Origin: Syntrophorhabdaceae bacterium
GTDB taxonomy: Bacteria; Desulfobacterota; Syntrophorhabdia; Syntrophorhabdales; Syntrophorhabdaceae
Assembly (NCBI GenBank): GCA_963666485.2
Contig: CAXXUO010000001.1
Location: forward strand, 32,001-96,000
Length of the DNA stretch: 64,000 bases
Direction of reading: 5' to 3'
A model generated the notes under the pieces. That model saw nothing but the letters and a program-made list of their open reading frames with translations. It searched no databases and was not told the origin of the DNA. A program made the translations under genes and the position numbers. Of the stretch, positions 61,486 through 64,000 are shown in pieces. Numbering within the stretch: position 1 is the stretch's first letter; each line of letters opens with the position of its first letter.

Positions 61486-62667
61486 ATGACCAAAGACTTC
61501 ATCCTTGAATTGTTCAGCGCCGCTGCCATGCAGCGGTGGAACGACAAGATACGGCCTGTCGAGCTGAAAGAACTGGACAAGCAGGCGCACAAGATGACGA
61601 TCGCCTATTTCCTCGGGAAGTTCGAGGAATCGACCGAGGGGTTCAGCTGGCTCGAGATCATCGAGGGCGGGCTTTTCGAGTTTCTCGAACGCCTCGTCAT
61701 AACCGATCTCAAACCCCAGATATTCAACCGGATAAAAGAAGACAGGAAAAGATACGAGGAATTGACCAGATGGGTCTTTGCGAAGCTGGAGCCGGTCCTG
61801 TCGCCCCTTGGCGGGGAGTTCCTCGAAAGATTTCAACACTATTTCGCGAGCGCGGACAATACAGTCAATAAAAGGATCCTCACTGCCGCGCATTTTTACG
61901 CGACGCGCTGGGAATTCGACATCATCGAGCGGGCAAACCCTACCGGGTATGAGATCCCTGAGATCAGGGGCTTTCTGCAGGGCCGGCAGGAACGCTACTA
62001 TGACCTTGCCGGCATCCAGCAGCTCGCCCTGTTCCAGAAATACAGGAACTTCCTCGACCTGTGCGGGCAGCTGCGTTTCCAGTACCGCTGGAGCCACATA
62101 AACATGATACCCCGCATATCGGTGCTCGGGCATATGCTCATTGTCGCCATCCTCGCGTATTTGTTCTCACTGCAGATCGGGGCATGTCCCCGGCGGTGCT
62201 TCAACAATTATTTCACCGGGCTTTTTCACGACCTGCCGGAGGTGCTCACACGCGACATTATCTCGCCCGTCAAAAGGTCTATCGAAGGGTTGGAGTCTCT
62301 CATCAAGGCCTATGAGAAGGAACAGATGGACAAGGAGATCTTCAACCTCCTCCCCGCCGGATGGCATGATGAGATGAAAACCTTCACGGAGGATGAATTC
62401 TCGAGCATTGCCGTTATCGACGGCACCATTGTCAGGACCGACACAGACACGATAAACCGGCAGTACAACGAGGACAGGTTCAATCCCCGCGACGGTGTGA
62501 TGATCAAGGCCGTCGACGACCTGGCCGCATATGTCGAAACATACTGTTCCCTGGAAAACGGTGTCCGCTCACCCGAGCTCGCCGAGGCGCGCAGGTCGAT
62601 CCGCGACAAGTATCGCGACACCGTTATCGGCGACATCCTTTTTCATGCCCTGTTTGCACAGTTTTGA
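61486..62667 (+). CDS. HD-domain phosphohydrolase (YfbR-like, duplicated fold)
   Basis: MQRWND; RW..SVLGH..LFHDLPE.LTRDI..KAVDD. Confidence 0.85.
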   Translation: MTKDFILELFSAAAMQRWNDKIRPVELKELDKQAHKMTIAYFLGKFEESTEGFSWLEIIEGGLFEFLERLVITDLKPQIFNRIKEDRKRYEELTRWVFAKLEPVLSPLGGEFLERFQHYFASADNTVNKRILTAAHFYATRWEFDIIERANPTGYEIPEIRGFLQGRQERYYDLAGIQQLALFQKYRNFLDLCGQLRFQYRWSHINMIPRISVLGHMLIVAILAYLFSLQIGACPRRCFNNYFTGLFHDLPEVLTRDIISPVKRSIEGLESLIKAYEKEQMDKEIFNLLPAGWHDEMKTFTEDEFSSIAVIDGTIVRTDTDTINRQYNEDRFNPRDGVMIKAVDDLAAYVETYCSLENGVRSPELAEARRSIRDKYRDTVIGDILFHALFAQF

Positions 62668-62689: not shown

Positions 62690-62718
62690 TTGACAAAAAC
62701 CGGCCGTCCCGTTACCAT
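62690..62718 (+). promoter_or_regulatory. Putative sigma70 promoter of the cytochrome gene
   Basis: TTGACA-N17-TACCAT, followed by AGGTG and ATG 62733. Confidence 0.55.
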
Positions 62719-62732
62719 TTTGTCAGGTGCCC

Positions 62733-63974
62733 ATGCGGAAATATCCCCTCTGTATATGCCTGTTCCTGGCATTTGTCATCGCCATTTTCACTTGCACCGC
62801 ATACGGAGCGGACAGCGGCTGCGTTAATTGCCACACAAACGAAAAAATGATGCGCGCCCTCCACACGCCGGTGAAGGCCGATCTGTCCGAAGGCGTCGGG
62901 TGAGCGGGCGCACCTCCGTCGGTGCCGGCGGAGATCCAATATAAGGCATATCTCGTCAATCCCAAGATCCTCGCCACAAATCCCCATTTCGCGGAAGGTT
63001 GTGCCTTCTGCCATAAGGGCAACGAAAAGGCGGCAACCCGGGAGAAGGCGCACGCAGGGCTCGTAAAAAAACCTTCATCCAACATTGACGTATGTGCGCC
63101 GTGCCACGACAAGGCGGCAAAGGTATACAAGGATTCACTGCATTATACGACTGAGGGGTTCAGGCACGGCGTTTCGGCACGGTTCTCCGCAAAAGAGAAG
63201 AAAATATTCGATGATAAGGTATTCCAGGGATCGTGCAGGAGTTGTCACGCAACGTGCGGCGATTGCCATGTTTCGTCCCCGAAAATAGGCGGCATATCGA
63301 CCGGCCTTATCAAGGGGCATGAATTCGTGGCAAAAGAGGACAAGACATGTGCAACCTGCCACGGCGGGAGGGTCTATCCCGAATTTACCGGGGATTTCGG
63401 CGGGCAGGCGGATGTGCACTACCAGAAAGGGATGAACTGCCTGAGTTGCCACAACAAGGCGGAGCTTCACGGGACGGGGACCCGGTATGTGACAAAGACG
63501 GATGTCAAAGAGAAGCCTTCCTGTACGAACTGCCATAAGCCCGGCACCGAAACAACAGAAAAGGCCCGGTCATCACATACGCAGCACACAGGAAAAGTAA
63601 GCTGCTACGCCTGCCACGCAGGCGGTTCTTATACGAACTGCTACGATTGCCATCTCGGAAAAGGCGCTACCCCGAAACCCGGGTTTTACCTGGGGTTGAA
63701 CCCCAAAGACAGGAAGACCGTAACGACATTGCGCCTTGTGCCCACCGTACGCAATACATTTAAATCGGCCGGCATAAAGCAGGAAAATTTCGACAAGGTC
63801 CCGAACTACTGGGGTACCGCAACGCACAACATAAAGAAGCGGACCGACAGGACACGCTCCTGCGATGTCTGTCACACGGACAAGCAGAATTTCCTTACGC
63901 AGCAGACATTGATCAAGGGTGGTTCGAAAGCGAACAACCTCCTCATCTATACCCCGAAACCCATAAAACCTTAA
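62733..63974 (+). CDS. Exported 11-heme cytochrome c with in-frame UGA (probable selenocysteine, codon 57)
   Basis: Signal peptide MRKYPLC..AYG|AD, CVNCH, EGVG-UGA(62901)-AGAPPSV in frame with 62922..63974, which carries 10 more CxxCH. Confidence 0.8.
62914..62933 (+). promoter_or_regulatory. Candidate bacterial SECIS element
   Basis: ctccgtcg-[gtgc]-cggcggag stem after a 10-nt spacer from the UGA, loop starting GU. Confidence 0.65.
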
Positions 63975-63987
63975 AAGGAGACCGGCA

Positions 63988-64000
63988 ATGAAAAAAGCGA
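63988..64000 (+). CDS. Start of next gene (MKKA..., truncated)
   Basis: AAGGAG RBS then ATG AAA AAA GCG. Confidence 0.5.

Follow-up and report, generated by a model that had tools for sequence, protein, structure and literature searches.

A probable selenocysteine-containing 11-heme cytochrome c with a rhodanese partner in a Syntrophorhabdaceae bacterium

Two open reading frames separated by a TGA in the genome of a Syntrophorhabdaceae bacterium very probably form one gene for an exported 11-heme cytochrome c, in which comparison of homologous sequences points strongly to UGA being decoded as selenocysteine (Sec). The gene is located close to the end of the analyzed window, which is a 64,000-nucleotide stretch of contig CAXXUO010000001.1, and it is followed by a gene for a periplasmic rhodanese. 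The best explanation of the observations as a whole, to which we assign a probability of about 0.6, is that the Sec-decoded cytochrome and the rhodanese constitute a molybdenum-free reductase of sulfur compounds.

The reading frame extends from ATG 62733 to TAA 63972–63974 of the forward strand and is open except for the single TGA at 62901–62903 (Table 1). The list of open reading frames, made with translation table 11, begins the 11-heme cytochrome gene at GTG 62922 and gives it a length of 350 residues. The product of reading through the UGA has 413 residues, of which Sec is residue 57 in the context EGVG-U-AGAPPSVP; the Sec57-spanning peptide is EGVG-U-AGAPPSVPAEIQYK. The 413-residue product contains eleven CxxCH motifs, the first cysteines of which are residues 30, 90, 121, 168, 175, 206, 236, 264, 291, 303, and 377, and all eleven motifs are invariant across 40 aligned sequences of the family. 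All 22 cysteines of the mature cytochrome belong to the heme motifs, and the only other cysteines of the product, at positions 7, 9, and 21, are part of the hydrophobic N-terminal leader. Sec57, located in a glycine-rich loop between hemes 1 and 2, is the only chalcogen side chain of the mature protein outside the heme motifs. Nine histidines that do not belong to the motifs are invariant in the 40 sequences (H85, H107, H137, H196, H229, H246, H282, H285, and H365). Therefore, two of the eleven hemes lack a conserved histidine as the sixth ligand. The sequence-only reading of this DNA had followed the frame through one TGA to ATG 62733 and had placed a promoter, an AGGTG resembling a ribosome-binding site, a signal peptide, and an additional CVNCH motif upstream of the TGA. 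Translation of the frame bore out its course, and the promoter-like and AGGTG elements, the hydrophobic leader, and the CVNCH motif of the read-through product are all present.

Table 1 Features of the Sec cytochrome gene and its surroundings in the window.
Feature	Position	Strand	Basis
Sigma-70-like promoter, TTGACA-17-TACCAT	62690–62718	+	10/12 matches; consensus match only
Shine-Dalgarno-like AGGTG, 3 nt 5' of ATG	62725–62729	+	Sequence reading
Full coding sequence of putative 11-heme cytochrome c selenoprotein, 413 residues and TAA	62733–63974	+	Homology across UGA in orthologs
Predicted signal peptide, residues 1–25	62733–62807	+	Hydrophobic leader; helix 4–23 in structure model; probable cleavage after AYG
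First heme motif CVNCH, 5' of UGA	62820–62834	+	C30, C33, and H34 invariant in 40 sequences
UGA, probable selenocysteine codon, residue 57	62901–62903	+	TGA column kept among homologs
SECIS-like hairpin, 8-bp stem, GUGC apical loop 62922–62925	62914–62933	+	Comparative data
Ten further CxxCH motifs (residues 90–381), part with possible OTR-like fold	63000–63875	+	Alignment, structure model, structural alignment
Periplasmic tandem-rhodanese gene, start only	63988–64000	+	297 residues; extends 882 nt beyond window end

Searching 60 related genomes in all six frames identified 28 orthologs with 54–79% identity, and each of them contains exactly one in-frame TGA, which is at the same alignment column in all 28. 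The phylum was sampled evenly with 401 genomes, 44 of which contained matches with E ≤ 1e-30. One TGA was found in 45 of the 47 match rows, and the two rows without it are a proline-type paralog encoded by this genome and a fragment at the edge of a contig. At least 570 loci of the family were counted in species-representative genomes, and the best 80 all have TGA at the Sec column, as do 79 of 80 loci from metagenomes, the remaining one of which lacks the N-terminus. Because the genomes are related, and the sets of orthologs, phylum, species, and metagenome loci partly share members, these counts are not to be taken as independent observations. Sequencing error as the source of the TGA is ruled out by its retention in the 28 orthologs, the 80 best loci, and the 79 metagenome loci. 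The sequence-only reading had proposed an alignment of homologs across the TGA, with attention to TAA or TAG at this place and to separate genes in different frames. In the alignment, the UGA occupies one column and the homology spans it on both sides. In clades with identities as low as 33%, the codon is always an in-frame TGA; TAA or TAG does not occur there, and the TGA never falls out of frame.

Members of clade A have the motif G-U-AG-PPxV, about 412–424 residues, and 11 CxxCH motifs. Those of clade B, with 33–37% identity, have the motif GEG-U-GG-xxAPLEP, 431–474 residues, and also 11 CxxCH motifs. Variants with 17 hemes, in which an N-terminal extension contributes six additional hemes, occur in 18 metagenome loci (L186, L191–L192, L194–L196, L198, L202, L206, L208, L211, L219, L222, L226–L228, and L230–L231). 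Seven hemes precede the UGA in these variants, so a true stop codon would split a large protein. The additional N-terminal part of the 17-heme variants is an in-frame c7-like module that places the Sec codon approximately 230 residues into the protein. L196 is open at the start of the locus, and only 14 of its CxxCH motifs are visible.

The nucleotides following the UGA can form a hairpin with arms at positions 62914–62921 and 62926–62933. An 8-bp hairpin with a GUGC loop, beginning 10 nt after the UGA, had been described from the sequence alone, and it was found exactly so. The apical loop of this hairpin includes the GTG at which gene callers started the gene. Folding of the single sequence of the hairpin region provided no gain in stability relative to shuffled sequences (z 0.30); therefore, the argument for the hairpin is carried by the comparative data and not by the single sequence. 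The 8-bp stem 10 nt after the UGA is paired in 84.5% of the cells of an alignment of 38 clade-A sequences, and control partners slid from their positions pair in at most 57.6% of cells. In three pairs of the clade-A stem both partners have changed, as in CUG/CAG and CCACCG/CGGUGG. The 13 sequences of clade B have a different stem, GUGGCUCC-GUU-GGAGCCAU, 9 nt after the UGA, in which 97.9% of the cells are paired, as against at most 51% with the partners slid. Two positions of the clade-B stem have changed on both sides, with five compensatory cells in all, and both positions change together in L085 and L086, from GCUCC/GGAGC to GAGCC/GGCUC. The covariation score of clade B was reached by none of 500 shuffles. 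The position of the stem inside conserved coding sequence limits what covariation can show. The stronger point, as judged from the aligned sequences, is that two clades have predicted stems that differ in sequence at the same place. The apical loop starts with G-U in every sequence of clades A and B, and a G-U apical loop is a criterion for the bacterial hairpins that direct Sec insertion. Such a hairpin was not found in four proline-type paralogs without the UGA, and an Rfam scan of positions 62850–63000 returned matches at chance level only.

The genome, which is 99% complete, contains two selA genes, two selB genes, selD, and a tRNA-Sec scoring 73.7 bits, all above the curated cut-offs. Thus, the Sec genes and the tRNA-Sec that the sequence-only reading had suggested looking for are present. 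The selD gene (L011, C2:512556–513467) contains one in-frame TGA, which suggests that the selenophosphate synthetase of the organism is also a selenoprotein. The second selA and selB genes lie side by side (L001 and L004, C3:19436–24445), and the selA frame of this pair encodes 795 residues, compared with the 455 positions of the model, which may mean a fusion. The selA gene was found in 371 of the 401 genomes of the phylum and in 42 of the 44 genomes that carry the cytochrome gene; it was not found in G172 (98% complete) and G328 (93% complete). Since selA is near-universal in the phylum, its co-occurrence with the Sec cytochrome gene says nothing about their connection. The sequence-only reading of the protein as a 413-residue periplasmic multiheme selenoprotein with Sec in a glycine-rich linker is supported by the UGA, the hairpin, the Sec machinery, and distant relatives that carry cysteine in the linker.

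The genes past position 63988 had been suggested for inspection, and the first of them encodes a tandem rhodanese. It starts 14 nt after the TAA of the cytochrome gene, and its 297-residue product has two rhodanese domains (PF00581, E 1.3e-39, two stretches) behind a leader peptide. The catalytic cysteine, located in a YCDTG(K/R) loop of the second domain, is near-invariant in 27 sequences. A terminator with a 16-bp stem is positioned 22 nt 3' of the rhodanese gene. With a promoter in front of the cytochrome and a terminator after the rhodanese, the unit comprises promoter, cytochrome, rhodanese, and terminator. The rhodanese adjoins the Sec cytochrome in 22 of the 28 related loci, in all nine further clade-A loci, and in all eight clade-B loci given to Pfam, where seven of the rhodaneses have a single domain. 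Natural fusions of the two proteins exist in L058, P0133, and P0145; each has two rhodanese domains, and the one in L058 (912–3038, minus strand) retains the in-frame TGA. Loci from the same genus show that the partner is not obligatory: in L026, L027, and L038 a gene for Fe/Mn superoxide dismutase is found downstream in place of the rhodanese, L028, to which Pfam was not applied, gave no rhodanese match, and L029 has only a rhodanese remnant of 39 residues. The rhodanese match in L025 (2745–3636) is in two pieces in different frames, possibly because of a frameshift or an assembly error. The sequence-only reading had suggested that Sec is possibly a heme ligand or a redox site for sulfur or selenium, and the conserved rhodanese partner favors a role of the cytochrome in sulfur or selenium metabolism.

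No gene for a quinol dehydrogenase or another electron donor was found in the cytochrome-rhodanese operon. In L044, a gene for a cytochrome b561-family membrane protein (778–1389), which is a possible donor on the quinol side, is located directly upstream. The gene upstream of the cytochrome in the window (61486–62667, forward strand) encodes an HD-domain protein resembling the YfbR 5'-deoxynucleotidase, and its adjacency is kept only within the genus. Beyond the rhodanese terminator (L053:3969–8481) are genes for an ImuB-like protein (impB/mucB/samB family) and a DnaE2-like polymerase, a pair that usually forms an SOS mutagenesis cassette.

A structure model of the cytochrome calculated from 106 sequences has a pLDDT of 90.9 and pTM of 0.84 and contains no hemes; an earlier model from 40 sequences, with a pLDDT of 56, was not used. 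The nearest solved fold is that of the octaheme tetrathionate reductase OTR from Shewanella oneidensis (1sp3_A), which was aligned by VIA-align with a Z-score of 9.8 and an rmsd of 4.1 Å over 255 residues within residues 82–413 of the model. The next structural match has a Z-score of 4.5. Foldseek found nothing in the PDB at E ≤ 0.001 and scored OTR at E 0.02 with a TM-score of 0.32. The family profile detected OTR among PDB chains at E 9e-10; with one protein sequence as the query, the PDB yielded only weak matches to heme motifs. OTR is a periplasmic multiheme enzyme that acts on a sulfur compound. It has eight hemes compared with eleven in the Sec cytochrome, and residues 26–81, which comprise heme 1 and the Sec loop, are outside the structural alignment. 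The OTR family model TIGR04315 matched neither the Sec cytochrome nor any protein of the whole genome; control genomes did not give matches either, which makes the genome-wide result weak. By sequence, the Sec cytochrome is not placed in the OTR family, even though no other solved structure comes closer to its model. Some proteins annotated in GenBank as members of TIGR04315 are listed as selenoproteins in the available part of a selenoprotein review from May 2026.

The sequence-only reading had left open whether the protein belongs to the multiheme selenoprotein family known from Geobacter. Identity with MccSep/ExtKL (GSU2937-2936) of Geobacter sulfurreducens was rejected based on profile and architecture. 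The model NF040886 did not match the Sec cytochrome at E ≤ 0.01 or any protein of the genome at E ≤ 0.001, and the family profile aligned with the MccSep chains 9wt8 and 9wt9 over 24 residues only, at E 0.05. According to the available text on the MccSep structures (PDB 9wt8–9wtc), the protein binds five hemes, Cys239 serves as a heme ligand, and Sec325 is part of an Ig-like domain at the C-terminus; the protein reduces polysulfide, its preferred substrate, and, less well, selenite (PMC13510729). Its gene cluster includes the rhodanese-like lipoprotein ExtH (PMC5877670, available text). MccSep and the Sec cytochrome are alike in being periplasmic multiheme selenoproteins, actual or predicted, with two apparent open reading frames joined by an in-frame UGA and a downstream hairpin. 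Sec follows glycine in both, in DG-U-P of MccSep and G-U-AG of the Sec cytochrome, and both clusters contain a rhodanese gene. They differ in that MccSep combines its five hemes with a C-terminal Sec325 and the Cys239 ligand, whereas the Sec cytochrome has eleven hemes, Sec57 in an N-terminal loop, and no free cysteine. Since the two proteins are unrelated by sequence, their likeness is convergent. The model NF041027 of the GSU2204 family of CXXCH selenoproteins was not among the NCBIfam matches at E ≤ 0.01, and no NCBIfam model (June 2026) reaches its cut-off on the Sec cytochrome.

Based on the gene arrangement, the conservation of the UGA, and the comparison with known systems, a mechanism can be proposed. 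The UGA would be decoded by SelB and tRNA-Sec under the direction of the hairpin 10 nt downstream, with the incorporation of selenium into the product. The product would be exported by the Sec pathway and would mature into a periplasmic 11-heme cytochrome c. The co-transcribed rhodanese may take sulfane sulfur from polysulfide, elemental sulfur, or thiosulfate in the form of a cysteine persulfide. In contact with the cytochrome, it would pass this sulfur on to Sec57, whose selenolate would form a Se-S adduct. Electrons supplied through the heme chain would then cleave the adduct and release sulfide, provided that the reaction runs in the direction of reduction. The pair would act in the manner of MccSep and ExtH from Geobacter, although the OTR-like scaffold of the cytochrome is unrelated to MccSep. 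In Wolinella succinogenes, the polysulfide reductase Psr, a respiratory enzyme, receives sulfane sulfur from Sud, a periplasmic carrier of the rhodanese type. Psr contains molybdopterin and is neither a cytochrome nor a selenoprotein. The specific role of the Sec cytochrome as a rhodanese-fed reductase of sulfane sulfur or polysulfide has, in our estimate, an even chance of being correct.

In an alternative reading of the same selenoprotein, Sec57 would be the distal axial ligand of one heme, in a His/Sec center, and the enzyme would be oxidative or reversible, acting on thiosulfate and tetrathionate or on sulfide, and not a reductase of sulfane sulfur. In a further version, Sec57 would ligate one of the two hemes without a conserved histidine, or be positioned directly over it, and this natural His/Sec center would accept sulfane sulfur from the rhodanese. 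The shortfall of conserved histidines, nine for eleven hemes, leaves two hemes for such a ligand, and the nearest solved fold is that of a tetrathionate reductase, well separated from the next match. Hemes with His/Cys ligation occur in TsdA, SoxAX, and MccSep. Their presence in sulfur enzymes is discussed in the available text on MccSep (PMC13510729). However, the structural alignment with OTR starts at residue 82 and does not cover the Sec loop. Furthermore, most of the named carriers among the matches listed belong to anaerobic, syntroph-like lineages, to which an electron sink would seem more useful than an oxidative enzyme. We consider the His/Sec center unlikely.

A less probable alternative still is that the cytochrome and rhodanese handle selenium: the rhodanese would carry a perselenide and the cytochrome would reduce selenite or elemental selenium, or the pair would deliver selenium. 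MccSep also reduces selenite, as mentioned above, and a paper on selenium-substituted rhodanese is cited in the reference list of PMC5877670, as far as that list is available. The Sec cytochrome has matches to ExtN, ExtO, and ExtM, which are named by NCBIfam as parts of a selenite and tellurite reduction operon. Nevertheless, these are generic matches to heme motifs, at most 44 bits and far under the cut-offs, and polysulfide is the substrate that MccSep prefers. Carriers of the family occur widely in ordinary anoxic environments, in which selenium species are presumably far scarcer than those of sulfur. A sulfur-compound reductase remains our preferred reading.

It is very improbable that a near-cognate tryptophan, cysteine, or arginine tRNA reads the UGA with no selenium involved, or that the codon serves as a regulated leaky stop. 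This explanation could draw on database relatives with tryptophan (P0036, P0063, and P0170) or arginine (P0017, P0123, and P0233) at the position of Sec. However, TGG or CGA was found at the column in none of the 159 loci read as DNA, 80 from species and 79 from metagenomes. The forms with tryptophan are encoded on short contigs, and the tryptophan may be a TGA translated with a different genetic code. A search of metagenomes for the DNA encoding P0063 did not recover its own contig, and the best match had 75% identity. The hairpin, which is conserved and covaries, has a G-U loop, and keeps its distance from the UGA, corresponds to what Sec decoding requires, and the genome encodes the full Sec machinery.

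In close full-length relatives from clade A that lack Sec, the Sec column is occupied by arginine, serine, tyrosine, alanine, or proline, and never by cysteine, which indicates that the residue may be dispensable in some lineages. Cysteine is present in the same linker in 12 of 42 full-length distant representatives, in the motifs GEG-C-GG, GE-CC-GG, S-C-GG, and DG-C-AS; the linker is poorly aligned, and the match is by likeness of the motif without a firm column. We take these 12 relatives to be probable cysteine forms of the Sec family despite the gaps in the linker. The genome encodes a 413-residue paralog with 49% identity and proline in place of Sec (L054:1197–2435, C1:1366196–1367434), which has no hairpin. 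Downstream of it are genes for a 629-residue multiheme cytochrome and an ArsA-type ATPase. A rhodanese of a different kind is encoded beside two of five proline-type paralogs.

The least probable explanation is that the UGA is a true stop, leaving an exported monoheme peptide of 56 residues and a leaderless 350-residue cytochrome or a pseudogene. It agrees with the fragments of 346–351 residues listed by gene callers and public databases, where most of the 120 matches listed cover 81–85% of the query. Yet c-type hemes are attached after export, which a fragment without a leader could not undergo. The supposed restart codon is not conserved, since just 11 of the 38 sequences of clade A have GTG there and the others have GTC or GTT, and the TGA is retained in frame in clades that have diverged to 33% identity, on which grounds a pseudogene or two separate genes were rejected. 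Contigs from three sequencing runs of one sample, possibly the source of this DNA itself, have no differing letters over the stretch, and raw reads of a fourth run gave no match to it.

Public databases contain almost exclusively the leaderless fragment of about 350 residues, and most of the 120 matches listed are of that kind. Among 1.84 billion representatives, a search with the family profile identified 171 proteins at E ≤ 1e-30. Many of them begin at profile positions 68–75, directly past the Sec column, a signature of the same mis-called start. Judging from these database sequences, the Sec cytochrome is a widespread and mis-annotated family. It is found in several phyla according to record titles, and it is common in relatives of Syntrophorhabdus, Smithella, and Syntrophus and in Nitrospirota. 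The carriers include Geobacter sp. OR-1 (L128), and a record from Syntrophus gentianae is among the matches listed. Term searches did not find the family in the available tables of selenoprotein reviews from 2022 and May 2026, in which the only cytochrome-related families found were ExtKL, GSU2204, and the OTR family. Literature searches, with thin coverage of subscription journals, returned no account of a Sec cytochrome with 11 hemes and a rhodanese partner. Because close relatives never have cysteine at the column, surveys that rely on close pairs of Sec and cysteine forms can miss such families.

If the Sec cytochrome is a reductase of sulfur compounds, it would double the known kinds of selenium-heme sulfur enzymes and indicate cryptic sulfur cycling by syntrophic bacteria. 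If Sec57 forms a His/Sec heme center that accepts sulfane sulfur from the rhodanese, the enzyme would be a second, independently evolved selenium-heme sulfur reductase. Since the gene is common in relatives of syntrophs, classical syntrophs of methanogenic habitats would, in that case, have a hidden sulfur-based electron sink.
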